The notes under the pieces are model-generated. The model made no database searches, was not told the origin of the DNA, and saw only the letters and a list, made by a program, of their open reading frames with translations. From IMG/VR virus record IMGVR_UViG_3300045016_000216: 23,572 nt of DNA; one strand, written 5' to 3'. Every line of letters begins with the position of its first letter. Position 1 is the stretch's first letter. A program made the translations under genes and the position numbers. This stretch comes from an uncultured virus (IMG/VR IMGVR_UViG_3300045016_000216). Its lineage: Duplodnaviria; Heunggongvirae; Uroviricota; Caudoviricetes. Positions 1 to 23,572 of this stretch are shown here, one piece after another.

Positions 1-1486
1 TTCTAGTTGACATAAATAATCTCCATGGGGGCACAGAGAAAGAACCTCTAGGAATCAAGACCATTCCATATTTTCCATATTGAACCCATGAACTAGAATC
101 AACTGAATTACCTGTAACATAAATATGGTTATTACATTTTACAAAAAATGCTTCAGAAGGGACTTTCACACACCATAGTTTTCCTGAATAAATTTGTTCT
201 TCCTTTTTTAGTTTATTTACATAGATATGTTTTATAGAAGAAGACCTTAATCCTTTATAATTATTGTATTCATAAACAGAGGTGGGTATACCTAACAATA
301 AACACATTATCCTTATTACTTCTAAATTTTCCTTTTTAATTTCCTTTTTGACTTTAATCTCAAACCCTTTTATTCTTTTTAGACCTGAAATAGTCCCATC
401 TGCTAAAACGGAATTATTAATAAATAATTCCGTTTGTTCTTTTGTTAATTTATAGGGTAAATCAACGGGTAGTTTTTTATTAGGTGCAATAGATAATAAC
501 CAATCCGACATTTCCCCGTACAATTCAAAGGAAATAATATTTTCAGTTATACTTTCACAAAATATTTCTCCGCTCCTTATAAGGGCTTCCCTTATTATTT
601 TACACTTTTCAGGATTCGCTTTTTCTGATTGATATATTACTACATTATTTTTGGTATATCTTTTTCTTTTGTTTATAGTACCATCTGTCCAAAACCAAGA
701 TAAAATGATCACTTGTTCATTTGATATGTTAGATTCTGTGGGAAAATTGTAATCCATTCCTACACGGTTAATACAATCATTAAATGAAAGGGTTTTTGTT
801 GTTCTCCATTTATATTCTTCATCTCTATGTTGCCAATGAGACACTACCCAACGATGGTTTTCACTAACAATGGTTTTAAAATTCCTATTATATAATTTGT
901 ATAACTTTTCATTATGAACTTCAAATATAGGAATTTCTTCTATTTTCTGCCATTCTGTTTTCCCGTAATTGAAAGTCAGAATTTCATCTCCTACTTTTAA
1001 ATTTGATAAATTGTTCCATCCTGATCTAGTCAATATTGAATGGTCTTCTTCTGTCATACAATACCAAGGGTATCTTGCTATCAACTCAGGAGAAGTCAAA
1101 CCAAATCCATGTATCTTATTTTTAGGGATAAAGTCAGGAGCTTTACAGATAACTCTCCAACATTGATCTAACCAAGAGAGTAAGGATTCTTTTCTTCCCC
1201 CTACCATTCCCCCTAAAGCTACATACTCATAATTATCAAGGTAATATCTTAAATACTTTTCATCTTCATTGTAATGATAGCAAGGAAGAGGTTTTAATCC
1301 ACAATCTTCCATAACTTTTTGATTGATCAGAGTTTCTTCGGCGTTACCAATACAATCAAGATTGGTATAAACTTCTAAATATTCTAAATTAGCCTTGATA
1401 AATCTTATGTAATCGGTTAGATTAATAGTTGTGTTTTTGGTTAAGGCTGTATAAGCTCCAGAATCTAAAAAGATCCTAGTTTTCAT
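1..1486 (-). CDS. dpdA: DpdA/TGT-like 7-deazaguanine DNA transglycosylase, intein-containing, 3' end outside the window
   Basis: Hand translation from ATG at 1486 (overlaps the gat-queC stop): MKTRIFLDSGAYTALTK...NLDCIGN...PLPCYH...YVALGGMV...KIHGFGLT...RYPWY|intein|SVDSSSWVQYGKYG. DSG, LD, GG, HGFG and xDS are TGT-barrel motifs. The frame stays open to the left edge, which explains its absence from the ORF track. It lies directly downstream of folE/gat-queC. Confidence 0.8.
   Translation of the reverse strand, partial: MKTRIFLDSGAYTALTKNTTINLTDYIRFIKANLEYLEVYTNLDCIGNAEETLINQKVMEDCGLKPLPCYHYNEDEKYLRYYLDNYEYVALGGMVGGRKESLLSWLDQCWRVICKAPDFIPKNKIHGFGLTSPELIARYPWYCMTEEDHSILTRSGWNNLSNLKVGDEILTFNYGKTEWQKIEEIPIFEVHNEKLYKLYNRNFKTIVSENHRWVVSHWQHRDEEYKWRTTKTLSFNDCINRVGMDYNFPTESNISNEQVIILSWFWTDGTINKRKRYTKNNVVIYQSEKANPEKCKIIREALIRSGEIFCESITENIISFELYGEMSDWLLSIAPNKKLPVDLPYKLTKEQTELFINNSVLADGTISGLKRIKGFEIKVKKEIKKENLEVIRIMCLLLGIPTSVYEYNNYKGLRSSSIKHIYVNKLKKEEQIYSGKLWCVKVPSEAFFVKCNNHIYVTGNSVDSSSWVQYGKYGMVLIPRGSFSVPPWRLFMSTR
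107..1060 (-). mobile_element. Intein (318 aa) with LAGLIDADG homing endonuclease, inside the DpdA-like gene
   Basis: Block A CMTEEDHSILTRSGW, block B VSENHRW, LAGLIDADG-like blocks LSWFWTDG and NSVLADG, block F LWCVKVPSEAFFV, end YVTGN followed by Ser+1. Excision restores YPWY-SVDSSSW. Confidence 0.9.
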
Positions 1487-2813
1487 ATTTTATGCAATCT
1501 TCAACCTTATTCATTATAAAAGCCTTTTTTCTCATATAGCAAGGTCCGCACACCCCACAATGCAAATCTCTACCTTCATAACAAGACCAAGTTAGATGTA
1601 GAGGAGCCTTAAGTTCTAACCCCATTTTTACTATCTCATGTTTCATTAAGTTTCCAACAGGCTGTAACATTTCTACCCTGTTTTGTAGATTGGTAGCATA
1701 AGGTAGGATGTCATTGAATTTTTGAGCAAAGATCATCTCATTATCAGGATAGGCCCCGCTTTCTTCAAGATTATTTCCCAAAGCTATGTAAGTTACTCCT
1801 CTTGATTCTGCAAGTGCTGTAGCTATGGAATACATTATTAAATTTCTTGCAGGAACCCACTCCCAAGCAAGTTCAGCGGAAGCCTCTCCATCTGCTAATT
1901 GATCTTTTGTGTTTGTAAGTCTTGAATGTCCGATAACAGTTTTGAAGATGTCAAGAGGAACCAAAAGATAGGACATGTTAAGGTAATCTGAAACATCTTT
2001 TACAGCTTGAATTTCTTTTTTTTCTGCCCTGCATCCATAAACAAAATGGACTAAAGTAACATCATATCCTTGATCTTTTAAATAGGTTGCAGTTACTACA
2101 GAATCTAATCCACCTGAACATATTACTAATACCTTTTTATCTTTTTCAGGGGCAGGTCTCCAAAGAGAATGGGGTTGAATTAGTTGTCCTCCTTTCAATA
2201 CCAACAGAGAATAAGGGGGAACTTGCACTATTTTGTTATCATAGGTATTTAGATATTTTCTTAAAGAGGAAAAATAGATAGTATCTCCTTTAAATGTTAT
2301 AAATAAAGGTTTGTAATTCACCGCTAAATATAGAGTATGAGTTTTCTTATCCCATATTGCCATAGCATAGGATCCTACAATCTCATCTCTTAGTACCTCA
2401 ATAAGATGTTCTACAGTACCGTTCCAAATTTTTTCTAATAATGGAGCTATTACAGCAGAATCAATTTTGGATTCTGTTTTCAAGGAATATTTTTTAATTA
2501 GTTCCTTGTCATTTGCAATAGTACCATTATGAGCAACTACAAATCTCTTTGTAACGAAAGGTTGGACATCTTTATCAGTTTTGTTTTCTACATATTCTGT
2601 AGTAGGTTCGGCCCTATTATTATTTATAGCTATTTCATAAATACTAATCGGTATCTTAGGAATAACACCTTTTTCTATAGAGGAATAGAGAGTTCCATCA
2701 ATATAAATACCGCAAGAATCTCTACCTCTTTCTTGTGCTTTTTTGATAATGTCCCTTAAATAAAAGGAATCTATTTTTGCGGAATCTACTAAACATCCAC
2801 TTATAGAACACAT
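1476..2813 (-). CDS. queC: Gat-QueC fusion (class II glutamine amidotransferase + preQ0 synthase; archaeosine-forming type)
   Basis: N-terminal MCSISG (Ntn Cys), RGRDS, HNG and DS. C-terminal SGGLDS PP-loop, VPARN, YPDN and SCY...CGVCGPC zinc motif. Confidence 0.93.
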   Translation of the reverse strand: MCSISGCLVDSAKIDSFYLRDIIKKAQERGRDSCGIYIDGTLYSSIEKGVIPKIPISIYEIAINNNRAEPTTEYVENKTDKDVQPFVTKRFVVAHNGTIANDKELIKKYSLKTESKIDSAVIAPLLEKIWNGTVEHLIEVLRDEIVGSYAMAIWDKKTHTLYLAVNYKPLFITFKGDTIYFSSLRKYLNTYDNKIVQVPPYSLLVLKGGQLIQPHSLWRPAPEKDKKVLVICSGGLDSVVTATYLKDQGYDVTLVHFVYGCRAEKKEIQAVKDVSDYLNMSYLLVPLDIFKTVIGHSRLTNTKDQLADGEASAELAWEWVPARNLIMYSIATALAESRGVTYIALGNNLEESGAYPDNEMIFAQKFNDILPYATNLQNRVEMLQPVGNLMKHEIVKMGLELKAPLHLTWSCYEGRDLHCGVCGPCYMRKKAFIMNKVEDCIKYEN

Positions 2814-2816
2814 AAG

Positions 2817-3386
2817 TTATCCTTTCGAGATCCTTGCAAGGAATTCATCTTTACATCCCCCATCATTAGTCCTAAACAAACCTCTGGTAGCTATTGCTTC
2901 ATAGGGGGAATTGAATTTTTTCAATCCTCTCATCTCTTTGCAAAGATGTCTGGCACTCATTACAAGAATTTGACCTTGAGGTTTTAAGACTTCTTCAAAT
3001 TCATTTACAATTTGATTCACAAGTCTTTCAGCCACTTGAAGTCTGCCAGAATAATAATCTACCATTCTTCCTATTTTACTTGCTCCTAAAACTAATTGGT
3101 CAGGAATGTAAGAATAGTAGTATTCACCAAAGAAGGGAAGCATGTGGTGTTCACAAAGGGAGAAGAAGTAACCTTGATCTATGAGCATTTCATCATAAAG
3201 AATTCCATCTTCTCCATTTGGAACAGTCATGATCCTAGGTTTTTTGTCCTGTTGATACCCACAAAAAAGTTCCTCATACATTTCAGCCATCCTTTTTGGA
3301 GTATCAACAAGACCATTCCTGTTCAGATCCTCACCAATTTCCTTAAGAAAACCGGCAAATATTACCACCAAGGCATTTTTGTTCAT
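2817..3386 (-). CDS. folE: GTP cyclohydrolase I
   Basis: TPKR, SLCEHHMLPFFG, SKIGR, RLQVAERL, HLCKEMRG. Confidence 0.95.
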   Translation of the reverse strand: MNKNALVVIFAGFLKEIGEDLNRNGLVDTPKRMAEMYEELFCGYQQDKKPRIMTVPNGEDGILYDEMLIDQGYFFSLCEHHMLPFFGEYYYSYIPDQLVLGASKIGRMVDYYSGRLQVAERLVNQIVNEFEEVLKPQGQILVMSARHLCKEMRGLKKFNSPYEAIATRGLFRTNDGGCKDEFLARISKG

Positions 3387-4045
3387 TATTGAGCCTCAGC
3401 AGGAGCTTCAGCAGGAGCTTCAACAGGTTTAGGTTTAACAGGAGCCAATGTATCGAAACTCATAACTCCATCCCCATTGACAAGGATAAGTTTCTTGAAC
3501 CTGTCATATTTAGTTCCTAACTGATTGGGGTTTTTTCCATCTGCTAAAGCAGTAGCTGGAGTAAGTTTAGATCCTCCCCATTGTTCAAGATACATTTCCA
3601 CCAATTCTTTCTTGGTGTACTTAGCTTCAGCAATTTTGTTTTTTAGCCAAATTATCCTTTCTCCAGGACCTCTCTCTTTCTTTTCCTTGGGCTCTTTCGG
3701 AGGTTTAGGTTCTTTAGCTTTCTTTTCCTTTTTCGGAGCTTCAGCTTCTACCTTTTCTTGAGGTTCCGCAGCTTCTACTTTTTCTTTAGGTTCCGCAGGA
3801 GTAGATGGAGGAGCATCATCTGTACCATACATAAAATTCCACATATCAGCTACCATTTGAGGAATTTTGTCTGTCTTGTCTGGATGATTTTCAATCAAGT
3901 CATCCATCTTGTTGGTGAAGTCTTCGATTAGTTGTTCCTTAGTTTTCCCTACACTCTTGATTTTAGGATCAATAAGACCGGAATCGTTTAGGGATTTGAT
4001 TGCCTCTTTCAACTTTGTTAAGTCAATTAAACCAATTTCTTTCAT
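3386..4045 (-). CDS. Putative DNA-binding protein: SAP/Rho-N-like N-terminus, K/E/P/A-rich linker, shared C-terminal wHTH-like domain (paralog 1)
   Basis: RBS aaggagg. TAATG overlap with folE. C-terminal domain is about half identical by eye to that of 17173..17679. Confidence 0.6.
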   Translation of the reverse strand: MKEIGLIDLTKLKEAIKSLNDSGLIDPKIKSVGKTKEQLIEDFTNKMDDLIENHPDKTDKIPQMVADMWNFMYGTDDAPPSTPAEPKEKVEAAEPQEKVEAEAPKKEKKAKEPKPPKEPKEKKERGPGERIIWLKNKIAEAKYTKKELVEMYLEQWGGSKLTPATALADGKNPNQLGTKYDRFKKLILVNGDGVMSFDTLAPVKPKPVEAPAEAPAEAQ

Positions 4046-4097
4046 AAAGCCTCCTTGATTTTTTTTGTCTCTAAGGACATTTTTTTATTCTACTACT

Positions 4098-4134
4098 AAT
4101 ATAGCATATTTTTTGAAAAACCGAAAATTATTTT
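4098..4134 (-). promoter_or_regulatory. Putative class II (middle) promoter, copy 1
   Basis: AAAATAATTTTCGGTTTTTCAAAAAATATGCTATATT: extended -10 (TGnTATATT), no TTGACA. 31/37 ungapped identity with 13013..13049. Confidence 0.6.
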
Positions 4135-4163
4135 TCCTCGGAAATTCAAAAAATTTTTTTCCC

Positions 4164-4820
4164 TTATCTCTCATGTTTAGAACCTGACCAAAGATACTTG
4201 TGTAATGGAACATTTATTCCAAAATCAAACATTTTTATTTTTATTGCATCCTCAACTAGAGCTTGATCTGAATATTTAGGTTTAACTGCACTTAGGAAAA
4301 ATCTGGCTCTACACCCATAATCTATCAAACTCTTCCTCACCAATACAGCCTCAGCCAACTGTTTAAAATCTTCCACCGGAATTTTTACAAAATCATCTTT
4401 TGTTAAATTAGCAAAAGACCAATAATTCATCTTATTTTGGTAATCTAATTTATAATCCACAACCCAACATAAATCCTTAAACCATCTGAATATAGTAGGT
4501 ATAGGTTGAGTTCCATTAGTTTCCACACTTATTTTGTATTTAGCTGCGGAAAATCTATCAATTAAGGTGTATACTGCCCTTTCTTGCAGTAAAGGCTCTC
4601 CTCCAGTTATTGTGATTTTTTTACAGCCATAAAATTCTACTTGTCTAAAAATTTCCTCTACACTCATGTCCTTTCCAGAACTTTCTTCTTGGGCATATTT
4701 TGTGTCACAGTACCAGCACCTTAAATTACAATTTGAAAAACGTATGAAAGTGCTGAATGTTCCCTGTCCCCATAGATTACATTCCCCATCTATTGAGTGG
4801 AAAATACTGAAAATTTTCAT
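4164..4820 (-). CDS. queE: 7-carboxy-7-deazaguanine synthase (radical SAM)
   Basis: SIDGE, FIRFSNCNLRCWYCDT (CxxxCxxC), ITGGEP, ETNG. Confidence 0.95.
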   Translation of the reverse strand: MKIFSIFHSIDGECNLWGQGTFSTFIRFSNCNLRCWYCDTKYAQEESSGKDMSVEEIFRQVEFYGCKKITITGGEPLLQERAVYTLIDRFSAAKYKISVETNGTQPIPTIFRWFKDLCWVVDYKLDYQNKMNYWSFANLTKDDFVKIPVEDFKQLAEAVLVRKSLIDYGCRARFFLSAVKPKYSDQALVEDAIKIKMFDFGINVPLHKYLWSGSKHER

Positions 4821-5164
4821 TTTACCTCCAATTCAGCATAAGAATCGGGTGTTTCATACAACCTAAGCCTTTTTAGATCAGGTAGTAGGTTTTTAAGATC
4901 ATCAGCTATCCAAAATAATAAGTTTTCTGCTGTAGGGTTTTCTAGGATTTCATTTAACAAACAATGGTCTAATAATTGAATTATCCTACTATTTACTACT
5001 TCTTTCAGGTATGAGAAATCCATAACCATTCCTGTTAAAGGATTAACATGTCCCTCTACAACAACATCTAATCGGAATCTATGACCATGTAAAAATCTAC
5101 ATTTACCTTCATAATTCGGCAATTTATGTGCTGAATCAAAATAAAAAGTTTTAGCTATGATCAC
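4817..5164 (-). CDS. queD: 6-carboxytetrahydropterin synthase
   Basis: FDSAHKL, CRFLHGH, LDH, NPTAEN, YETP. Confidence 0.95.
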   Translation of the reverse strand: MIIAKTFYFDSAHKLPNYEGKCRFLHGHRFRLDVVVEGHVNPLTGMVMDFSYLKEVVNSRIIQLLDHCLLNEILENPTAENLLFWIADDLKNLLPDLKRLRLYETPDSYAELEVK

Positions 5165-5737: not shown

Positions 5738-7251
5738 TATGTAAAGTCCCATGTCCTTTCTGAGTCTAAATTAACTTGACCCAAGCTAAGTTGTTGTAAT
5801 ACTATGCAGTTTTCTTCCTCATTAAATTCCTTGTGTCTGTGACCTAATAATCCTATTCTGACCAAATGATGTCTTTTTTCCTCCTTTGTTTGGTTTATTG
5901 CTAAGAAAACATCAACATGACCTAAAATACCTATCCACTCAGACACACCTTCTTGATCCATCTGTTTCTTGTACAAAGCTCCTCTGTTAGCCTGCCATGC
6001 ACTAACTACTAAACAGTTCCTTTCTGAAGCTAATTGACCAAGAATCTTCCAAGTATCATCAATTTGTTCTCTTTTCTGCATTTTTGGATTTTCTGGTCTC
6101 AAAATACCAGCATAGTCAATTACAATAACATCTGGAATAAATTCATCATTTTGCTCTAAAAGATCCAAGTCCCTTTTTATGTCTTCTATATTTGCAGAAA
6201 ATTTAGGGTAACTCATAGCTCTGATATTTGAACCATATTGATATTTGAAGGATTTAATGTGATTTACAGTATTTGCCATAGTAAATTGAGGTCTTTCTAC
6301 AGCCTGAAACCATGTAGCTACCCTGTAATTTACTGTACCTCTGCACTCAGTACAAGGTCTGTAGGCTAAATCTTCAGAATAAGGGGGAATTTCTCCACTC
6401 TCTCCTATTAACCTCTCTCTGTTTTTTCTTCTAGGATCACCACATTCCCCTACTTGGTTGAAATGACAATCAAACACAGGGTAAATCCATTTAGTTGCCC
6501 CTTCTCCAAAAGCTGTCAATCTTTTATAAAATCTTGCGTTCATTGTTTCCTTATTCATTTCAAGGGATATAAATACTACTTTCAATCTCTGGAATAAAGC
6601 TAAAGTAGCAAGTTCTATCAGAACCCAGGTTTTCCCCCTTTTGAAGGCCCCCATCACCCCTATAACCCAACCTCTTTCCATAGGGCCTATCATTCTGCCC
6701 AGTTCCCCCGGAAATCTTAACAGTCCCTCTGGATTAGCATCAAAAACAGTCCTAACTTGTTTTTCATCAAATACATCATACCATCCTGTGGTAAGTTTTT
6801 CTACTTTTTTGTAGTTCCTTATTTGCTCCTCAGCCTCATCAACTTTACCTATTGATAATAATTTGGCAATATTATCCGCAATTATTTCAAGTTCTCTTTT
6901 TTTGAAATATTTTAGTGCGGAATCTAAAATATAATCTTCATTTATTCCTTGATCTTCCTCATACTGTTCTGATAAGTGAACAAGGAAAGCCTCTATGATG
7001 TCTGTTTCTTCCTGAGAAAGTTCACCTTTTTCAAGGTCAAAAATATTTTTTATGTTTGTTTTAGGAGATTTTCCATATTCCTCAAAGTATTGTAAACACC
7101 AATGACAGATTATTTTTACAAAACTGTTTTTTATGTAATTAGGATCATAGATTGGTAATATCTCCTGTAAAAATTTTTCAGAAATAATAGAAGCAGTGGC
7201 TATCTTTTTTTCTACGGTGACATCTAAATCCCTCTTTGCTAATATTGTCAT
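5737..7251 (-). CDS. dnaB: Replicative DnaB-like (SF4) helicase
   Basis: Walker A GAFKRGKT, ISLEM, Walker B VIVIDYA, SAWQANR. Confidence 0.88.
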   Translation of the reverse strand: MTILAKRDLDVTVEKKIATASIISEKFLQEILPIYDPNYIKNSFVKIICHWCLQYFEEYGKSPKTNIKNIFDLEKGELSQEETDIIEAFLVHLSEQYEEDQGINEDYILDSALKYFKKRELEIIADNIAKLLSIGKVDEAEEQIRNYKKVEKLTTGWYDVFDEKQVRTVFDANPEGLLRFPGELGRMIGPMERGWVIGVMGAFKRGKTWVLIELATLALFQRLKVVFISLEMNKETMNARFYKRLTAFGEGATKWIYPVFDCHFNQVGECGDPRRKNRERLIGESGEIPPYSEDLAYRPCTECRGTVNYRVATWFQAVERPQFTMANTVNHIKSFKYQYGSNIRAMSYPKFSANIEDIKRDLDLLEQNDEFIPDVIVIDYAGILRPENPKMQKREQIDDTWKILGQLASERNCLVVSAWQANRGALYKKQMDQEGVSEWIGILGHVDVFLAINQTKEEKRHHLVRIGLLGHRHKEFNEEENCIVLQQLSLGQVNLDSERTWDFT

Positions 7252-7874
7252 ATGGTTACCTCATTCAATACAGCAAATTCTCCATGTAATTCCTTAGCCT
7301 TTTCATTGTAAGCTAAAGCGGCTTCTTCTTTAGTAGAAAATGTCCCTATAAAAATAGGGATATAATCACACATTATAAAAGCTCCCCATTTTTTTATATC
7401 TTTGCAAAAGGAAACTCCCTTAAACCCTGATGTATTATTCTTTGAAATACCTCTATTTTTTATATTTTCCATTTGAGTGCAAATTCTTAAATTTTCTTTT
7501 CTGTTATCCAATTTATTTCTATTTTTATGATCCACTGTTGTTTCCTTTTCTTTGTGGAGATTCAGAATGAATTTTGTAAATGAAACAGGTCCTATTTCTT
7601 TGTTTGACATTACATATCCTGTATTTATTCTGTGCCATTTTATATTTTTAACCTTATTATAATCTTCCAAATCAAATATAGTTTCTGCAATTTCTTCACC
7701 TTTCCTATTATAAAGCTTCATCCTACAATGGTTATTATCAATGATAATTTCATTAGGATCAAATCTTGTCCTTTTAAGAATTTTTCCACATCTATTAATT
7801 TGCATATAATGGTTTACACACAATCCTTTTGCATAAAATTTGTTATTACACCCTTCAATGGAGCAAATTTTCAT
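7248..7874 (-). CDS. Free-standing HNH-AP2 homing endonuclease
   Basis: N-terminal CSIEGC...AKGLCVNHY; VDHKNRNKLDNRKENLR (HNH); NNTSGFKGVS...W.A.I...GTFSTKEEAALAYN...HGEFA (AP2). Confidence 0.9.
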   Translation of the reverse strand: MKICSIEGCNNKFYAKGLCVNHYMQINRCGKILKRTRFDPNEIIIDNNHCRMKLYNRKGEEIAETIFDLEDYNKVKNIKWHRINTGYVMSNKEIGPVSFTKFILNLHKEKETTVDHKNRNKLDNRKENLRICTQMENIKNRGISKNNTSGFKGVSFCKDIKKWGAFIMCDYIPIFIGTFSTKEEAALAYNEKAKELHGEFAVLNEVTI

Positions 7875-10146: not shown

Positions 10147-11034
10147 TCACAAAAACAAATCCGATCTGAGTTTTTTTACATCTTCCTCAGACAAATCAGC
10201 AGGATCACCTTCCGACAAAGTTAAAATTTCTACCTCTTTTACAATGGCTGAAAGATCATAAGCCAATTTATCAGCTTCTTTTTGGGCATCACTATCATAA
10301 AGGATAAAGGCTCTTTTTATTCCAGAAAAATGTACCAACTGATTTTTTGTGTACTTTTTACCAAATGTAGCTACTGCACCCTCTCCTATTCTCCATACAT
10401 CAGTAACACCTTCAACAATAACCACATTGTTTCTTACCGAATCTAGGTTATAAACTGCTGACTTTATGGGTATTACTGATTCTTCCACAGGTGCATTTTT
10501 ATAAGGTTCTTTTAATCCTTCAAAAATAGACCTTGCTAAGAAAGTTACCAATCTATTGTGAAGATAAACAGGTACTATTATTCTAAATTTGTAATCTCCA
10601 ACCTCTGCACAACCAAGCAAATCATATTTCTTTTCTAGGTAATCTGGATCAAATTTTCTTTTTATCAGATAATTTCTGTGCATTGATTGTAAAGGTGTTG
10701 CTAGGCTTGGTAACTTTACAAGATCAGAGGTTCTTCTTTCTTTCGGTACTTTTATGTTCCTATCTTGGTATTTATCTACAATTTTTTGAGCATAATTATA
10801 GGAACATTTCTCAACCTCTTGGATGTATTTTAGAACTGTTCCCTTAACGGAACATTTCCAACAAGATATTAATTTATCCGGAGAAATGCCCAGGTGTCGG
10901 GAAGGATCTGGACAAAATGGACAGTTAACTTCGACCCATCCTAGTGTTGTGTTTTTCCCCTCTGTTTGATAGTCTATCCTTTTATCCTCTAAATATCTTA
11001 TTATATCAAAATTTTGTAGTGGAAAACTTACCAT
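10147..11034 (-). CDS. DnaG-type DNA primase (zinc finger + TOPRIM)
   Basis: CPFC...H...CWKC; RIIVPV; IVEGVTD; LYDSD; GDPAD. Confidence 0.9.
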   Translation of the reverse strand: MVSFPLQNFDIIRYLEDKRIDYQTEGKNTTLGWVEVNCPFCPDPSRHLGISPDKLISCWKCSVKGTVLKYIQEVEKCSYNYAQKIVDKYQDRNIKVPKERRTSDLVKLPSLATPLQSMHRNYLIKRKFDPDYLEKKYDLLGCAEVGDYKFRIIVPVYLHNRLVTFLARSIFEGLKEPYKNAPVEESVIPIKSAVYNLDSVRNNVVIVEGVTDVWRIGEGAVATFGKKYTKNQLVHFSGIKRAFILYDSDAQKEADKLAYDLSAIVKEVEILTLSEGDPADLSEEDVKKLRSDLFL

Positions 11035-11620
11035 ATTGCTCTTTTTCCCCGATTATCCTTGCTTTTATAGCTTCTTCCTTAGAGTTAAAATATCCTAAAT
11101 GAATATGTTTCTTGTTTTTCCATAAACAAGCTGTCCATTTATTCGTTCTCTTATTAAGTCCTACTCCTTTATGCCCAGAAGTGTTGTTTGACGGGACTTT
11201 CCTATTTCTATTATTTTCTGAATAGGTAGATTCCCTTATATTTTTTCTCCTATTATCCCAAGGTTTTCTATTTTTATGATCAGGAAACTTATTTGCGGGT
11301 ATTTCCAATAAATAACGGGCCATATCCATACCTTTGTTATAAGATATTGTGTAACCTTTATAATCTTTCCACCACACTATGTCTTTCACCTTCTCATAAT
11401 CCTCAAAATCAAAATAAGTTTCTCCCACTTCTTCCCCTTCTATATTATAGAGTTTCATAATGCAGAAAAATCTACCAAAAATTATTTCATTCTTTTCCTT
11501 TATTATTCTATTTTTTATTCTTCCTTGATTTCTCATTTGAAAATAATGTCTGTGACAATATCCTTTTGCTAAGTGAGGAATTTGACAGTTTTCTATTTGA
11601 CATTTTTTTATTTTTCTCAT
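11006..11620 (-). CDS. Free-standing HNH-AP2 homing endonuclease (paralog of 7248..7874)
   Basis: CQIENC...AKGYCHRHY; PDHKNRKPWDNRRKNIR; NNTSGHKGV...HLGYFNSKEEAIKAR. Confidence 0.9.
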   Translation of the reverse strand: MRKIKKCQIENCQIPHLAKGYCHRHYFQMRNQGRIKNRIIKEKNEIIFGRFFCIMKLYNIEGEEVGETYFDFEDYEKVKDIVWWKDYKGYTISYNKGMDMARYLLEIPANKFPDHKNRKPWDNRRKNIRESTYSENNRNRKVPSNNTSGHKGVGLNKRTNKWTACLWKNKKHIHLGYFNSKEEAIKARIIGEKEQYGKFSTTKF

Positions 11621-17790: not shown

Positions 17791-18192
17791 TCATGTTTTT
17801 ATGTTTCTCCATCTCACCAATTTTTCTAATTTTATGCTTCCAAACAATACTGTCCCTCTTGGGGGTTTGTAAAAAGGTTTATGTTTGCCTTCATAGAAAT
17901 CCTTAAAATCATCAATTCTTGAAGGAACAAAATTGGGCAATATTTTCCTATCATATCCTTTTACCTTAAATACTCTATCCCCTCTTCCAGACCGCATGAA
18001 AATTAAAGCTCCTTCTAGGCTATTGAAGCAGAATACTCCTAAAGTCCAGGGTTTTGCTTTGGTTATTTTTCCTTTTTCATACCATAGGGTATAATTTGCA
18101 TCATCAGAGTAATTTCCTTTATAAGCAAAGGCACTAAAATACTTTTGTTTGTCCTCTCTCCCGCGACAGGAATTTACCACTTTATAAAACAT
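17791..18192 (-). CDS. Hypothetical phage protein
   Basis: RBS aaaggag; 133 aa. Confidence 0.65.
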   Translation of the reverse strand: MFYKVVNSCRGREDKQKYFSAFAYKGNYSDDANYTLWYEKGKITKAKPWTLGVFCFNSLEGALIFMRSGRGDRVFKVKGYDRKILPNFVPSRIDDFKDFYEGKHKPFYKPPRGTVLFGSIKLEKLVRWRNIKT

Positions 18193-18207
18193 AGGTTTCT
18201 CCTTTCT

Positions 18208-18402
18208 TTATTTTCTTAACCAATCCCTTAAAACTCGGAAAAGAATGTCCACCTGATCGTATGTTAAGGAAATATGGTCAGTTTCAGGTGTGAAAAGTTG
18301 TATCATTTTTCCATTGATTTTTCCACCATAGAATGAGGTTACATACAAATTCCTTTCCCGTTCCCCATACCTTTCTGTTATTTCAAGTAATCTTTCGGAC
18401 AT
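18208..18402 (-). CDS. Hypothetical phage protein
   Basis: RBS aaaggag. Confidence 0.65.
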   Translation of the reverse strand: MSERLLEITERYGERERNLYVTSFYGGKINGKMIQLFTPETDHISLTYDQVDILFRVLRDWLRK

Positions 18403-18416
18403 TTTTTCTCCTTTCT

Positions 18417-18656
18417 TTATGTTACTTCATGAATGGGAATTCCTTTCATTGAAGGTCTCCTTAACCAAATTTTTAACAATTCATAACTTTCCCAATCTAC
18501 CATAAAAGTCCCGTTTTCTAGATAAACAACCATAGCCCCTCTTCCATATGATCTTTGGGAAATATGAATTTTGATCACTTCCTCTGTGTGTCTTAATAAC
18601 CATCCCAAATTTTTTATTTTTTTGCCTGGTTTTCCTTCTCTAAAAAGCATAGGCAT
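18417..18656 (-). CDS. Hypothetical phage protein
   Basis: RBS aaggag. Confidence 0.65.
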   Translation of the reverse strand: MPMLFREGKPGKKIKNLGWLLRHTEEVIKIHISQRSYGRGAMVVYLENGTFMVDWESYELLKIWLRRPSMKGIPIHEVT

Positions 18657-18753
18657 TACTATTCTCCTTATTGTAGAATATCATAAAGATATTCCTTAAT
18701 GTCTTGCCTTTTTCCGAAATTTCCCGTTATCGCTATTTTTAATCCTAATCCTC

Positions 18754-18858
18754 CTATGGAATAGCTCTATAAGCTAATTCGATCACAATCCCCCAAAAAG
18801 CAAAGAGGGAAATCCAAATGATCGGCCAACATATCCATCTGAAAGTTAAGTCTTTCAT
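18754..18858 (-). CDS. 34-aa membrane peptide overlapping 18767..18976 (not in ORF track)
   Basis: aaggagg...ATG; MKDLTFRWICWPIIWISLFAFWGIVIELAYRAIP. Confidence 0.5.
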   Translation of the reverse strand: MKDLTFRWICWPIIWISLFAFWGIVIELAYRAIP

Positions 18859-18976
18859 TCCTTTTCCTCCTTATTAATAATAGTAAATGGGCTTTTCTTT
18901 TTCGTTGACAAAATGGGCATTGATACTCATCTTCATCCATTACCACATCTAAGCATTTAGGACAAAGTTTAAGCAT
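18767..18976 (-). CDS. Small zinc-ribbon protein
   Basis: CPKC...CPFC; ggaggag RBS; first gene after a promoter. Confidence 0.55.
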   Translation of the reverse strand: MLKLCPKCLDVVMDEDEYQCPFCQRKRKAHLLLLIRRKRNERLNFQMDMLADHLDFPLCFLGDCDRISL

Positions 18977-19006
18977 CTTCTCCTCCTTTTTTGATTTTAT
19001 AAAAAC

Positions 19007-19035
19007 ATTATATCACAACCGATAGATAATGTCAA
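19007..19035 (-). promoter_or_regulatory. Consensus sigma70 early promoter
   Basis: TTGACA-17-TATAAT with TG extension. Confidence 0.92.
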
Positions 19036-19063
19036 GAGAAAAACTTCATTCCATAAAAATAGT

Positions 19064-19357
19064 TTAGGAGAAATAAGTTCCTATCATGTACTGTTCTCCA
19101 TCCTCGGACAGTCTGATAACTACTCCAGAAAAATAAGTATCCGAAGAATAACCATGCCACCCTTTTAAATCGGAGTTATGTTCAACCCGTAAAAAATCTA
19201 ATAGGGAATAAGCCCAGTTTCTATAAATTAGGAAACATCCTACCTCATACTCTTCATCATTCATCCAGTCAAATTCTTTCCTCCACTTTTTGGGCAATTC
19301 ATACCCATACTTGAAGTTCTTCCACTTGCGATCTGTTTTTATAATAATGTCGGCCAT
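19064..19357 (-). CDS. Hypothetical aromatic-rich early phage protein
   Basis: RBS aagga; WHGYSSDTYFSGVVI motif. Confidence 0.7.
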   Translation of the reverse strand: MADIIIKTDRKWKNFKYGYELPKKWRKEFDWMNDEEYEVGCFLIYRNWAYSLLDFLRVEHNSDLKGWHGYSSDTYFSGVVIRLSEDGEQYMIGTYFS

Positions 19358-19376
19358 TGTTCCTTACTCCTTTCTT

Positions 19377-19433
19377 TTAGTCTTTTAACTTGGAGCAGAA
19401 GCTATAAGTTTCTGCTCCAAGTTAAAAGACTAA
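19377..19433. repeat. Perfect 24-bp inverted repeat with 9-nt loop
   Basis: ttagtcttttaacttggagcagaa / ttctgctccaagttaaaagactaa. Confidence 0.95.
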
Positions 19434-19645
19434 CTTAGCAACCACTTCTGTGCTTCTTCTTCATTGGTAAAAAGGGTCTGATGACATTTTGGACATGCGA
19501 TTTCTATATTCCCTTCTACTGAGAAATCCACTTCATCATATTGGATTTCCCCATCTTCTCCTACATACATTCTGAAGTGTTTCCACCCTTGATCGAATTC
19601 ATTCACATAATCAATTTTTTGGTTACATTTAAAACAAGTTTTCAT
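19430..19645 (-). CDS. Zinc-ribbon hypothetical protein
   Basis: CFKC...CPKC; ggagg RBS. Confidence 0.7.
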   Translation of the reverse strand: MKTCFKCNQKIDYVNEFDQGWKHFRMYVGEDGEIQYDEVDFSVEGNIEIACPKCHQTLFTNEEEAQKWLLS

Positions 19646-19866
19646 ATCTTCCTCCTTTGGTCGATATAAGAGTAAGAATCATCATCTTGCCAAGCTGCTC
19701 TCCAAACACATTCTAAACCCCATCCGTTTACATCTTTCCAAGTTACAAAATACTTGTAGCCTTTCCTCAGATAGAATTTCAAAGCTTTTGACCTGTCCCA
19801 AGTAGTTTCGTACAGTCTCCAGATAGTCGGATTTTCTGTCTTTTTCTCCTGAATTATTTTTATCAT
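19642..19866 (-). CDS. Hypothetical protein
   Basis: aggagg RBS; ATGA overlap. Confidence 0.65.
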   Translation of the reverse strand: MIKIIQEKKTENPTIWRLYETTWDRSKALKFYLRKGYKYFVTWKDVNGWGLECVWRAAWQDDDSYSYIDQRRKI

Positions 19867-19892
19867 ACTTTTCCTCCTAATGGAAAGATTCT

Positions 19893-20162
19893 CTATCTGT
19901 TAAGTTTTAACAGATTCCAAACAGAAGATGATCCCAAGAATTTAAGCACTGCTCTATCTCTTACTCCTATTTTGTGAAAATAAAGATCTTTTTCCAACTC
20001 TTCCTTGTTATAGGCGAAAGATGAGTATTTGTAATCCTTGTTTCCAGTTCTAAATAAAACCGTTATACTATCTCCACATTCACAAGTATAAATGTCCGCC
20101 ATTCTCCCTAACTTTGAGTGGAGAATACATCTGGTGCAGGCATGCTTAAAGTTTGGTTTCAT
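19893..20162 (-). CDS. Hypothetical Cys/His protein flanked by 28-bp direct repeats
   Basis: HACTRC...CEC; aggagg RBS. Confidence 0.65.
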   Translation of the reverse strand: MKPNFKHACTRCILHSKLGRMADIYTCECGDSITVLFRTGNKDYKYSSFAYNKEELEKDLYFHKIGVRDRAVLKFLGSSSVWNLLKLNR

Positions 20163-20344
20163 ACTTTTCCTCCTAATGGAAAGATTAGTTTCTGCCTTAT
20201 TCCATTCTTATTGATTAAGTGGACTTCTACCTGTGCCCAATCATCAAAAGATAAAGGCGAATAAATTTTGTAATTCCACTCATCCCACTTCTTGTACTCT
20301 TGCGGGAACTTCTCTTTGATCTTATCTTCTAAATTTGGAATCAT
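20159..20344 (-). CDS. Hypothetical protein
   Basis: ggaggag RBS; ATGA overlaps. Confidence 0.6.
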   Translation of the reverse strand: MIPNLEDKIKEKFPQEYKKWDEWNYKIYSPLSFDDWAQVEVHLINKNGIRQKLIFPLGGKV

Positions 20345-20667
20345 AGTTCTCCTCCATTATTCATCATGATTTCCCGAATTTTAGCACTCTCCATCATTCT
20401 CTCGAACGTTTCCCGATCCTTCTTATTGAATCCTGTCTTGTAATGATAGAAAGAACTCCATAGTTTCAAGCATGGTGTTTTTCTTCTTGGTCTTGTGGGA
20501 TGTTCTATAAAATCACCATCTTCTGTGAAAATGAGATTTGGTCCAAAGTCAAAATAGTATTTCCTTTTTCCTGTTACTTCATCAAACGCCACGATTTGTA
20601 CGCCTTTAAAGTACCCGAATCCGTAATCTTTGCCAATGTATGATTCTGCTTTAAATCTTGTTCCCAT
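20341..20667 (-). CDS. Hypothetical protein
   Basis: aaagga RBS. Confidence 0.65.
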   Translation of the reverse strand: MGTRFKAESYIGKDYGFGYFKGVQIVAFDEVTGKRKYYFDFGPNLIFTEDGDFIEHPTRPRRKTPCLKLWSSFYHYKTGFNKKDRETFERMMESAKIREIMMNNGGEL

Positions 20668-20699
20668 AGTTTAGTTCCTTTCTGTTATTGATCTGCATA

Positions 20700-20954
20700 T
20701 CATTTCTTTGCCCCATACTTTACGAGCATAACAGCTTGAATGGGATTATAGTTGCAGTATTTTTGGAGCATTGAGATCAACTCATCATCCCATTTGCTCT
20801 CATTGAATGGTGCATCTTTTATGTAATGGAATTTAGACATTCTTGGTTTTTCTTTAGACTTGAAATTTGGTGGTGGGATTAAGTTTCTTTGATGATTTGG
20901 CTTGTTGTATCTGAATAAACGCTTGGAACTAATTTCTGCTTGGAAGTAAAACAT
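20700..20954 (-). CDS. Hypothetical protein
   Basis: First ORF after promoter 21002-21030; start uncertain. Confidence 0.5.
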   Translation of the reverse strand: MFYFQAEISSKRLFRYNKPNHQRNLIPPPNFKSKEKPRMSKFHYIKDAPFNESKWDDELISMLQKYCNYNPIQAVMLVKYGAKK

Positions 20955-21001
20955 CGTGATCTCACTTTCTTTTTTTGGAATTTTTCGATTTTCATAGTAG
21001 T

Positions 21002-21030
21002 ATTATATCACATTATATAGATAATGTCAA
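21002..21030 (-). promoter_or_regulatory. Consensus sigma70 early promoter
   Basis: TTGACA-17-TATAAT with TG extension; upstream flank similar to the 17719 promoter. Confidence 0.9.
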
Positions 21031-21066
21031 TAGAAAATTATGTTCCAGAAATTATTTTTTCGGTTT

Positions 21067-21417
21067 TTAGAATCTTCTAAACTGGACAAACTCAAAGATG
21101 GAAGTCTTTACGCCATCTTTCTCTAAAGATTTTCGTTGTGTAGTGGAATGGACACATCTTTGCCTTCCCAAGAGAACTACTAAAGCGAAGATAAAGCCAG
21201 TCTCTCCCATCACGTGAAACACATCTTCGGCAGACGCATTTATGATTTCTGGATTAGATTGGCAGAATGTCTTCGCCAGATTCTCCATTTCTACATCGTT
21301 AATGTGGGGATCAACGTTTGGGAAAGGTACATCTACCACTTCCCCAAACTTCTGAGCTTCTTCCAGTTGCTTTTTGCCCCACTGAGAAGTTGGATGATTG
21401 GAAATGTTGAAAAACAT
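21067..21417 (-). CDS. Csx20/Csx15-like CRISPR ring-nuclease family protein, phage-encoded
   Basis: FFNISNHPTSQW...Q...DVPFPNVDP...HVMGE...STTQR...KTSIFEFVQFRRF matches the remembered pattern of type III CRISPR ancillary Csx20-like proteins. Start MFFNI after gaaaggag. Confidence 0.65.
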   Translation of the reverse strand: MFFNISNHPTSQWGKKQLEEAQKFGEVVDVPFPNVDPHINDVEMENLAKTFCQSNPEIINASAEDVFHVMGETGFIFALVVLLGRQRCVHSTTQRKSLEKDGVKTSIFEFVQFRRF

Positions 21418-21431
21418 GTGAAACGCTCCTT

Positions 21432-21659
21432 TCATTTTATTTGGTAAAAGTCAGTGCCATTGATCTCATAAGCTTTTTCGAAAGTGCAGGGATAAAAGAT
21501 TGCTTTCTCACAAGTGCCAAGAGCAGATTCGAGTACCACGGACTGCTCGTTGACAAACCCATCAACAGATGAATGATGGAGTCTAAACATCTTGCCATCA
21601 TCATCTTTGAAGATGGAGTCAAGCTCTCTACTCCATCCTGCCACAGTTTTAACTTTCAT
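21432..21659 (-). CDS. Hypothetical protein, first gene of the leftward early operon
   Basis: gaaaggag RBS. Confidence 0.65.
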   Translation of the reverse strand: MKVKTVAGWSRELDSIFKDDDGKMFRLHHSSVDGFVNEQSVVLESALGTCEKAIFYPCTFEKAYEINGTDFYQIK

Positions 21660-21742
21660 AAGAACGCTCCTTTCTTTGGGTTTTGGAAGAAATCTCCCGC
21701 AAAATTGTTAAAAATCACTTTTTGTAGAAAAGTCTCTCAAAC

Positions 21743-21914
21743 TGTCAAAATCTTGACATGTCAAAAAAATGACATGTCAAAAAATTGACAGTAAAAAATA
21801 TTTACAAGTCAAAGAGCAATGTAAAAAATGTTTACACGTGTAAAAAATGTTTACAGTCAAATAAATGACAGTAAAGATTGTTTACAAGTCAACTGCTATC
21901 AAAAGAATAGCAGT
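21743..21914. repeat. Tandem array of palindromic operator-like boxes
   Basis: WGTCAA-N4-WTGACA at 21743, 21759, 21775 and 21855; WGTAAA-N5-TTTACA at 21790, 21820, 21839 and 21870; actgctat-N7-atagcagt at 21892. Confidence 0.85.
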
Positions 21915-21943
21915 AGTATAGCATAAAGACAGAAAAAAGTCAA
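21915..21943 (-). promoter_or_regulatory. sigma70 promoter for the first early operon
   Basis: TTGACT-17-TATACT with TG extension. Confidence 0.75.
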
Positions 21944-21958
21944 GCTTAAAATCAAAAT

Positions 21959-22219
21959 TTGGTATATACTTTGCATACTGTAAACTAAGTTCACAGTATT
22001 ACAAAATTGTAAGATTACAAAATTGTATAGTCAAAGGCTATAAAACTGCTATGCAATCTATATGCCAAATTACAAAATTGTAAAACTGTGAACTAAGTTC
22101 ACACTACAAAATTGTATAGTCAAAGGCTATAAAACTGCTATGCAATCTATATGCCAAATTACAAAATTGTAGTAAGAAAAAATTGGCCCTAAAATTGCTA
22201 TATGCAAGTTCTATACCAA
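21959..22219. promoter_or_regulatory. Cluster of seven sigma54-type (-24/-12) GG-N10-GC elements
   Basis: Plus strand: TTGGTATATACTTTGCA (21959), AAGGCTATAAAACTGCT (22034, 22123), TTGGCCCTAAAATTGCT (22183). Minus strand: TTGGCATATAGATTGCA (22052-22068, 22141-22157), TTGGTATAGAACTTGCA (22203-22219). Confidence 0.7.
22016..22171. repeat. 67-bp exact direct repeat, 2 copies, period 89
   Basis: 22016-22082 = 22105-22171; each copy is bounded by TACAAAATTGTA. Confidence 0.95.
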
Positions 22220-22441
22220 GTATAGATAAAGCAAATAAAACGGATATAAGAAAGTCAAGGGGAAAAACCTGATATAATAAAATCAATAGATTGTATATAC
22301 CCTTGATTATAACCCTAACAAAAAAAGATAATGTCTCATATTGTAAATATGGAATAATGATTAAAATACTAATGATAAAAACAAGTTAAGGCATAGATAG
22401 ACTAATGAAGTAAAAAAAATATATAAATGATAAAAAAAAGC

Positions 22442-22471
22442 TTGACAAAGTCTATGAAAAGAATATATGTT
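22442..22471 (+). promoter_or_regulatory. Rightward sigma70-type promoter
   Basis: TTGACA-18-TATGTT with an A-rich UP region. Confidence 0.5.
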
Positions 22472-22512
22472 GAAACTAAAAACTCAAAACTCAAAATTAA
22501 GGAGTATAAAAA

Positions 22513-22644
22513 ATGGAAATGTACTATTGCGTGAGAGTCTCGGTATATATTAAGAAAATTGGAATTTCCCCACATACAGCTTATCTGATAGTTGATACTT
22601 TACCATCTATCATTAGAAGCAAAATCCTTGCTTGCTTTCGATAA
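22513..22644 (+). CDS. Hypothetical protein (43 aa, not in ORF track)
   Basis: taaggag RBS; MEMYYCVRVSVYIKKIGISPH... Confidence 0.55.
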   Translation: MEMYYCVRVSVYIKKIGISPHTAYLIVDTLPSIIRSKILACFR

Positions 22645-22743
22645 TTGATTTTAACCCATGTTAGGTTAATCCCATACCGGAAAGGGATTAGGGCTCCAAC
22701 CCTTGATAATTGGTATATACCATCAAAAAGGAAGGAAAAGACC

Positions 22744-23172
22744 ATGATGAAGAAAACAGAGGTTATTAAAATGGACTATACCCAAAAAGAAATTATCCAA
22801 CTTATCCAAGGGGAAAAACCTGTGCAGGTGGTCCCCGTGTGGGAGATGAAAAACATAGATCACGAAACAAGGGTTAAGGAAAAACGGGTGTCCCAGGAAT
22901 ATGCTCCACCAAAGGTCGTGGGGGACACCAAAAAAGAGAGGATCGGATATCTTTTTGATAAAATTGCGAAGGGAGAATATACCCGCAACGACCTTGCTTC
23001 CTTGGTGTCTTCGGTATACCCCATTAAACCGAGTACCACAAAAACAGAATTAAGCGATCTTAAAAACCAGAGTTTCAAAGGGAGTAAATACGCTCCTTAT
23101 TGGCCGGAGAAATGGGTAGGGTATATGGTTATTGAGGTTAATAAGATCTTCTCTCTCAAAAAGCTTGTATAG
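22744..23172 (+). CDS. Protein with divergent shared wHTH-like domain (paralog 3)
   Basis: aaggaagga RBS before ATG 22744; ERIGYLFDKIAKGEYTRNDL...TTKTELSDLKN...GSKY. Confidence 0.65.
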   Translation: MMKKTEVIKMDYTQKEIIQLIQGEKPVQVVPVWEMKNIDHETRVKEKRVSQEYAPPKVVGDTKKERIGYLFDKIAKGEYTRNDLASLVSSVYPIKPSTTKTELSDLKNQSFKGSKYAPYWPEKWVGYMVIEVNKIFSLKKLV

Positions 23173-23192
23173 GGGAGGGGAGGGAAGATACC

Positions 23193-23357
23193 ATGTCAAA
23201 CAAAAGTTTAGAGTCCAAATTAATCAAGGTCAAAGCGGACCTGGAAAAACGGATAAAGGGGATTGAGAGGGTAATTGCTGTAAGCAAACAAGACATATCC
23301 TTCTTCCTTTGGCTCCAAGAAAACCTAATCAAGGAAAAGCAACTAATCAATAGCTAA
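23193..23357 (+). CDS. Hypothetical coiled-coil protein (54 aa, not in ORF track)
   Basis: ggaggg RBS; MSNKSLESKLIKVKADLEKRIKGIERV...; followed by a terminator. Confidence 0.65.
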   Translation: MSNKSLESKLIKVKADLEKRIKGIERVIAVSKQDISFFLWLQENLIKEKQLINS

Positions 23358-23363
23358 ACCCTT

Positions 23364-23410
23364 AAAACCCTTGTCTGATAGTATATACCGATTAGGCAAG
23401 GGTTTTTTAT
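23364..23410 (+). terminator. Rho-independent terminator
   Basis: cccttgtctgat / attaggcaaggg stem (2 G-U pairs) followed by TTTTTTAT. Confidence 0.8.
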
Positions 23411-23420
23411 TGCCTATAGT

Positions 23421-23572
23421 CCTGTAGCCTGTAGCCTGTCCTGGTCCTGTAGCCTGTCCTGGTCCTGTAGCCTGTCCTGGTCCTGTAGCCTGTCCTGGTC
23501 CTGTAGCCTGTCCTGGTCCTGTAGCCTGTCCTGGTCCTGTAGCCTGTCCTGGTCCTGTAGCCTGTCCTGGTC
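23421..23572. repeat. 18-bp tandem repeat (CCTGTAGCCTGTCCTGGT), 8 perfect copies, runs off the window
   Basis: Units start at 23428 and recur every 18 bp to 23571; preceded by a partial CCTGTAG. Confidence 0.97.

Follow-up and report, generated by a model that had tools for sequence, protein, structure and literature searches.

The csx20-like gene and its surroundings

The stretch of DNA that we analysed, referred to here as the window, is 23,572 nucleotides long and corresponds, in reverse-complemented form, to bases 1-23572 of an IMG/VR viral record of 39,692 bp (CheckV ~40% complete). It carries a two-gene unit, a short ORFan followed by a csx20-like gene, together with repeats and promoter-like sites:

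21067..21417, minus strand: csx20-like gene, predicted stand-alone ring nuclease of 116 aa
21426..21432, minus strand: Shine-Dalgarno AAAGGAG, 8 nt upstream of the ATG at 21417, overlapping the stop codon of the upstream gene
21432..21659, minus strand: 75-aa ORFan, first gene of the unit, of no family and with only its own cluster as relative
21754..21779, no strand assigned: two copies of the perfect palindrome TGACATGTCA, candidate operator pair
21790..21886, no strand assigned: 17-nt unit, TGTAAAAAATGTTTACA-like, present four times and containing TTTACA/TTGAC boxes (repeat analysis)
21915..21943, minus strand: promoter-like TTGACT-17-TATACT with TG (consensus scan only)
22006-22034: second promoter-like site (consensus scan)
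21002..21030, minus strand: perfect TTGACA-17-TATAAT with TG extension, 12/12 consensus matches

The csx20-like gene is genuine, and its span includes the stop codon. The ORF spans 21067 to 21435 on the minus strand, but its real start codon is the ATG at 21417, the end coordinate given in the first-pass annotation; the homologues and a database copy (P0001, 116 aa) likewise begin at MFxNxSNHP, which fits this start. The first-pass annotation had singled out five motifs in the protein, and all of them were recovered: SNHP..W...Q as ISNHPTSQWGKKQ, and the other four as PFPNVDP, HVMGE, STTQR and FEFVQFRRF. They map to invariant or near-invariant columns in an alignment of 87 stand-alone relatives, where such columns comprise N4, S6, N7, H8, W13, Q17, D29, F32, P33, P37, H68, G71, E72, T92, R95, K104, F108, F110, F113 and R114. 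The motifs and the family matches described below are far beyond what chance would give.

The gene had also been described as the second of its operon, in agreement with our finding that the 75-aa ORF upstream (21432-21659) ends 14 nt before the csx20-like start. The same AAAGGAGCGTT box, a Shine-Dalgarno sequence, lies ahead of the ORFan and of the csx20-like gene. The ORFan cluster occurs on 11 contigs and has no other relatives, and searches with Pfam and PHROGs detected no Aca-type HTH or RHH regulator next to the csx20-like gene. The two TGACATGTCA copies are spaced 16 nt apart, start to start, and lie 95-120 nt upstream of the ORFan; the palindrome is matched twice against an expectation of 0 (100 shuffles) and is present only in copies of this phage. 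A scan of the region for consensus promoters gave 16 sites, against 9.4 ± 3.2 expected. The perfect consensus at 21002-21030 comes directly after the csx20-like stop codon, ahead of the next gene, and probably drives the genes that follow, and for this reason we regard the unit as two genes long.

Upstream of the unit, window positions 21650-23572 form a repeat-dense junction with roughly 1 kb of non-coding DNA, including a perfect 67-nt direct repeat present twice (22016-22082 and 22105-22171) and an 18-nt tandem array (23410-23572) at the contig break. Early promoters and operators might lie in this junction, or it might be a site where replication begins. We considered the 18-nt array as a genome terminus and rejected this, as a near-identical sister contig (L004) continues on both sides of it. 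No Rfam family matched the window at gathering thresholds, and no tRNA genes were found.

Setting in the phage genome

The record is viral, as it contains a replication module and a terminase gene is found on the sister contig, and the phage is uncultured and lytic. In contig orientation an ORF at 401-829 lies on the minus strand, and from 1914 to 39424 all 62 non-nested plus-strand ORFs of at least 60 aa form one gapless series. The sister contig runs past the window end and there encodes a large terminase subunit (phrog_9, E 3e-11) in the opposite direction, so that the csx20-like gene is the second after a divergent junction of roughly 1 kb that separates the packaging genes from the replication-side block. 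This block begins with the 75-aa ORFan and the csx20-like gene, followed by small genes of no assigned function and, further along, by DUF2786/DUF7168 and DUF932 proteins, an SF2 helicase, a primase zinc finger and a DnaB-like helicase. The replication module on the record comprises PolA with a UDG domain, clamp loader, gp32-like, RecA-like, FEN and SbcCD-like genes. Three paralogous HNH_3 endonuclease genes are scattered amid the replication genes (window 7248-7874 and 11006-11620; contig 25456-26085, equivalent to L111:2057-2686), and two of them also match the AP2 domain. The csx20-like gene lies near the head of this 37-kb co-oriented block; from its position and the consensus promoter-like sites, we reasonably infer that it is expressed early.

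At the other end of the window (2-5164, minus strand) lies a complete 7-deazaguanine set:

2-1486, minus strand: DpdA/TGT-like gene with a LAGLIDADG insertion (phrog_887, PF14528)
1476-2813, minus strand: GATase-QueC fusion
2817-3386, minus strand: FolE
4164-4820, minus strand: radical-SAM QueE-like gene
4817-5164, minus strand: QueD/PTPS

The combination of Gat-QueC and DpdA is a mark of phages with archaeosine-type bases in their DNA.

The absence of cas genes claimed in the first-pass annotation holds beyond the window: with Pfam, no cas family was found in the 33 window ORFs or in 15 ORFs of the remaining contig, and the Cas10 models TIGR02578 and TIGR02577 had no match in the 39,692-bp record. 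Like a viral ring-nuclease anti-CRISPR, the gene is thus virus-encoded and lies outside a CRISPR locus. A megablast search with window positions 18000-23572 gave no match in 50,697 deposited phage records.

Assignment to the Csx20 family

The protein matches the PADLOC Csx20 profile PDLC01397 over its full length (E 3.3e-28, 96.6 bits; residues 1-116 on profile positions 1-114 of 114). The C-terminal Csx20 part of the PADLOC model 'CARF2--CARF_HEPN_CSX20' matches it as well (E 3.4e-18), and Pfam PF27247 (MJ1673 in the Atlas) is a precomputed assignment for its cluster and for all six near relatives. In contrast, the match to NCBIfam NF040559 (CAS_Csx20), although it spans profile positions 4-124 of 124 (E 3e-7, 30.8-31.1 bits), does not reach the equivalog cut-off of 70 bits. 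The same holds across the 43 relatives compared with this profile: 40 match at 23-54 bits, three have no match and none reaches the cut-off. Neither PHROGs nor a Pfam set lacking PF27247 gave a match for the protein; in Pfam no family, DUF1874 (AcrIII-1/Crn2) included, matched at E ≤ 1. When the PDB was searched by sequence, first with the protein itself and also with the profile of its family, no solved relative was found. A phmmer search of 1.84 billion representatives identified 1752 relatives at E ≤ 1e-3, 671 of them at E ≤ 1e-10.

For reference we searched 401 Bacillota genomes, of which 21 hold Csx20 proteins scoring 138-166 bits on NF040559, and aligned nine of these proteins. The HHpred-type comparison proposed in the first-pass annotation was then made with hhalign; the 87-sequence family alignment matched the nine reference Csx20 proteins with a probability of 98.9% (E 2.1e-17, 103 columns). 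One reference protein scores 166 bits on PDLC01659/01384 but only 25 bits on PDLC01397. On these scores, Csx20 comprises two recognised subclades; the phage protein is placed in that of PDLC01397, and NF040559 describes the sister subclade. The phage protein is set apart from NF040559/PDLC01659 Csx20 proteins by its score (31 versus 138-166 bits on NF040559) and by the subclade-specific residues N4, W13, D29, FP32-33, H68 and K104. In other respects it resembles Csx20 in general (MJ1673; PDLC01397/01384/01659, PF27247, NF040559): both are about 115-125 aa long, share the same predicted five-stranded alpha/beta fold and carry motifs in the same order, namely (S/N)H after strand 1, Q, (Q/M)G(D/E), (S/A)TTxR and FxxV(R/Q)FRxY. 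The original suggestion of a Csx20-like protein is backed by the full-length PDLC01397 match and by the alignment to bona fide Csx20, and as judged from these comparisons the gene encodes an intact member of the family.

Conserved residues and predicted fold

Residue by residue, 78 cellular and 12 viral sequences were compared with five reference Csx20 proteins. H8, Q17, G71, E72 (D in the references), T92, T93, R95, F113 and R114 are common to all three groups, and A21, P37 and F108 are also among the residues shared by both subclades and the 12 viral copies; the phage protein has every one of them. H8, R95 and E72 are invariant in the 78 cellular and 12 viral sequences and align with H, R and D of the five references. 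A conserved His, Arg and Asp/Glu in Csx20 have been named as compatible with ring-nuclease function (PMC8284326), and the phage protein supplies these as H8, R95 and E72.

An AlphaFold2 model built from the 87-sequence alignment (pLDDT 97.5, pTM 0.87) has five strands and three helices in the order beta1-alpha1-beta2-alpha2-beta3-alpha3-beta4-beta5 (E2-6, H15-22, E27-31, H41-59, E66-69, H73-83, E88-100, E103-115). Models of Csx16 and Csx20 are described as having a core of a five-stranded sheet flanked by helices (PMC12409355), and the same arrangement is found here. Using Foldseek, no PDB match to the model was found at E ≤ 1e-3; its best structural neighbours were CARF/SAVED cyclic-oligonucleotide sensors, a tentative resemblance, and a search of BFVD gave a single viral match (E 2.7e-4). 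The first-pass annotation had made its proposal depend on a profile or structural match, and we found a full-length profile match, a profile-profile match and a model that seems CARF/SAVED-like.

Cellular and viral relatives

Cellular relatives of the protein are found in type III CRISPR loci or as fusions to Csx1-type effectors. All four plasmid matches are inside type III CRISPR loci; the Aureispira relative is directly downstream of cmr6, and those of Rhodothermus and Runella overlap or follow csx2 (TIGR02221). In species-representative genomes, 250 of 271 pattern matches encode relatives, and 70 of the best 80 cellular relatives are from Bacteroidota. We scanned ORFs of at least 500 aa around these genes with NCBIfam, counting 38 loci with such an ORF; the scan left out one antisense ORF, 28 ORFs from L082-L100 and, because L075 duplicates L074, the four ORFs of L075. 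In 24 of the 38 loci a match above cut-off lies within 8 kb, either to Cas10, to a TIGR03986 type III RAMP or to a TIGR02221 (Csx1-type)-Csx20 fusion. In eight of the 38, a TIGR02221-positive ORF of 567-623 aa has the Csx20-like domain as its C-terminus. The association with type III CRISPR holds for the relatives and not for the phage copy.

In IMG/VR we found the same phage again and 12 other viral contigs with full-length relatives. Genes for portal, RecT, ERF, methylase and homing-endonuclease proteins are among those nearby, and the 40 neighbouring ORFs scanned on the viral contigs gave no match to Cas10 or to a type III RAMP; one neighbouring PD-(D/E)XK nuclease also matched Cas4. The 90-kb contig L008 shares the DUF2786/DUF7168 and DUF932 genes with our phage at ~27% identity. 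Csx20 has been reported in 4 of 28,114 phage genomes (PMC12409355). Using tblastn, no relative of the protein was found in the 50,697 deposited phage records, and hence no culturable system is at hand.

Origin and host

The gene had been proposed to be captured from the host, which is conjectural: the closest cellular relative is only 49-51% identical, the closest relatives are mostly from Bacteroidota, and Shine-Dalgarno usage in the phage argues against such a host. In a quick tree the phage protein groups with a gene from a Bacteroidia MAG (51% identity) and with L008 (SH-aLRT 84), and the other viral copies are scattered among cellular ones. The tree is poorly resolved, with 42 of 93 inner branches open, and thus names no donor and does not tell one capture from several for the viral copies.

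Given that 70 of the best 80 cellular relatives are from Bacteroidota, we considered a host from that phylum. Bacteroidota rarely use Shine-Dalgarno sequences, and strong ones together with sigma-70-type boxes are atypical of the phylum. Shine-Dalgarno cores precede 46 of the 62 phage genes compared with 16.5% at random positions, and sigma-70-like boxes are present (consensus scan), so we rejected this host as unsupported. The gene donor and the phage host may belong to different phyla. Long AAAGGAGG boxes are frequent among the Shine-Dalgarno sites of the phage (contig 1914-39424).

Proposed function

Family membership, retention of the family-conserved residues, a confident fold, the viral setting and the type III linkage of the relatives together suggest that the protein is probably a cA4-degrading anti-type III CRISPR enzyme. 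The first-pass annotation had called it a candidate anti-type III CRISPR protein, and as a candidate it stands, on the Csx20 match and the viral setting. We envisage a small, stand-alone, CARF-like alpha/beta protein that is probably dimeric. When a type III CRISPR system recognises phage RNA, the host Cas10 would make cA4; the phage protein would bind this cA4 and cleave it to linear products, and cA4-activated effectors (Csx1/Csm6/Can2-type) would never be switched on. We infer cA4 binding and cleavage by this subclade, dimerisation, early expression and a cA4-signalling host; cA4 binding and cleavage appear the most likely activity because of the homology, the intact conserved residues and the logic of the Csx1 fusions. 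One representative Csx20 is described as degrading cA4 completely at an enzyme:substrate ratio of 1:100, and cA3 with ten-fold more enzyme (PMC12409355). The 7-deazaguanine modification of the DNA would not be expected to shield the phage from a type III system, which senses RNA, and this would, in our view, provide a rationale for a separate anti-type III gene.

The protein might instead be a cOA sponge that sequesters the signal by binding cA4 tightly, with slow turnover or none. Such behaviour is reported for Csx15, a CARF-like relative predicted to belong to the same group, which sponges cA4 well but is a very slow nuclease (PMC13148439). We think a sponge unlikely, as the phage protein retains the conserved His, Arg and Glu found in active Csx20, and Csx20 itself is described as catalytic (PMC12409355); moreover, according to the account of Csx15, type III systems make so much cA4 that sponging would be a poor way to counter them, and Csx15 was not seen in phages (PMC13148439). 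A wider substrate range is conceivable too, with cA3 and perhaps other cOA degraded as well as cA4, so that CBASS or cA3-type III effectors such as NucC would also be blunted. Csx20 is reported to degrade cA3 fully at 10 µM enzyme (PMC12409355), and SAVED domains binding cA3 and cyclic dinucleotides are among the best structural neighbours of the model, for which no PDB match reached E ≤ 1e-3. However, the cellular relatives of the subclade are fused or adjacent to Csx1-type (TIGR02221) proteins, and Csx1-type effectors are typically cA4-activated. As Csx20 is in addition described as essentially cA4-specific at 1 µM (PMC12409355), a broader nuclease of this kind seems doubtful to us.

A role outside counter-defence, either as a phage cOA sensor or regulator or as a neutral passenger gene, appears very improbable. 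The same domain does occur at the N-terminus of proteins of roughly 500 aa and fused to a PIF1/RecD-like helicase, as would suit a sensor, but the phage protein is a bare 116-aa domain with no output module. Every conserved residue is intact, and the fact that relatives recur across 12 or more unrelated viral contigs points to a function under selection. We also considered a more ambitious version of the counter-defence role, to which we give little credence. The two-gene unit would form a novel type of early module, self-contained and devoted to counter-defence, in which the ORFan would act as a second anti-defence protein or as a regulator working through the paired TGACATGTCA, and the Csx20 enzyme would have fast, broadened turnover (cA3, cA4, cA6) that disarms both type III CRISPR and cA3-based CBASS. 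Such a module, if real, would complement the 7-deazaguanine DNA modification, which would be protective only against DNA-targeting defences.

Comparison with known systems

The role that we favour, cA4 degradation against type III CRISPR, is that of AcrIII-1/Crn2 (DUF1874), likewise a small viral enzyme that destroys cA4 (PMC12409355, PMC12830947). AcrIII-1/Crn2 belongs to an unrelated family, and its role is experimentally proven whereas that of the phage Csx20-like protein is predicted. The locus also resembles the Aca14-regulated acr loci (NAR 2026, PMC13551039), in which a csx20 homologue similarly lies on a mobile element, in a short operon with promoter inverted repeats; csx20 in acr loci has been proposed to be a cas gene co-opted for counter-defence (PMC13551039). 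Unlike in those loci, the partner here is a 75-aa ORFan with no RHH/HTH match, and the palindrome TGACATGTCA is phage-specific. The C-terminal domain of Csx1-Csx20 fusions ('CARF2--CARF_HEPN_CSX20') is 37-48% identical to the phage protein, which in contrast to the fusions is the ring-nuclease domain alone; CRISPR-associated Csx20 genes differ from the phage copy in that the latter has no CRISPR locus nearby. Csx1-Csx20 fusions, already noted elsewhere (PMC8284326), have an analogue in the Csx1-Crn2 fusion, which is self-limiting.

Phages are known to defeat cyclic-oligoadenylate signalling mainly by means of viral ring nucleases, of which AcrIII-1 is the only one proven in a virus. That viruses encode ring nucleases as anti-CRISPRs has been stated in general terms (PMC13148439); the ring-nuclease activity of Csx20, phage Csx20 genes and csx20 in acr loci were all published in 2025-2026. 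Current understanding is therefore unchanged, since both the hypothesis and the occurrence of Csx20 in phages are already in print. We found no test of a viral Csx20 in the portions available to us of the literature on Csx20 as a ring nuclease, in phages or as an anti-CRISPR. The locus adds a clean and intact Csx20 from a lytic, DNA-hypermodifying phage; the protein represents PDLC01397, the less-studied subclade, and has relatives on at least 12 more viral contigs. It is a good candidate for asking if Csx20-type enzymes act as anti-CRISPRs and if viral copies work faster or more broadly than their cellular counterparts.

Other contexts of the Csx20-like domain

The domain was also seen at the N-terminus of proteins of ~480-550 aa, in which the remaining ~400 aa had no Pfam or NCBIfam match. 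Variant architectures are represented by P0099, P0106, P0117, P0118, P0128, P0139, P0152, P0093 and the ORF at L074:8001-9524; in P0152 the domain is fused to a PIF1/RecD-like helicase, and in P0093 it follows a PRiA4_ORF3 domain. Such multidomain proteins may be cOA-sensing effectors in which Csx20 serves as the sensor. The domains of Csx1-Csx20 fusions from L073, L089, L042 and L098 are near-identical (tree branch lengths 0-0.11), although their MAGs are assigned to a Methanomethylophilaceae archaeon, Firmicutes CAG:460, Spirochaetaceae and Paludibacteraceae; either the domains were transferred very recently or the bins are contaminated. Finally, the IMG/VR contig L012 encodes two Csx20-like paralogues ~3.8 kb apart (L012:5001-5363 and L012:9188-9538), which are 40% and 37% identical to the protein of the window.
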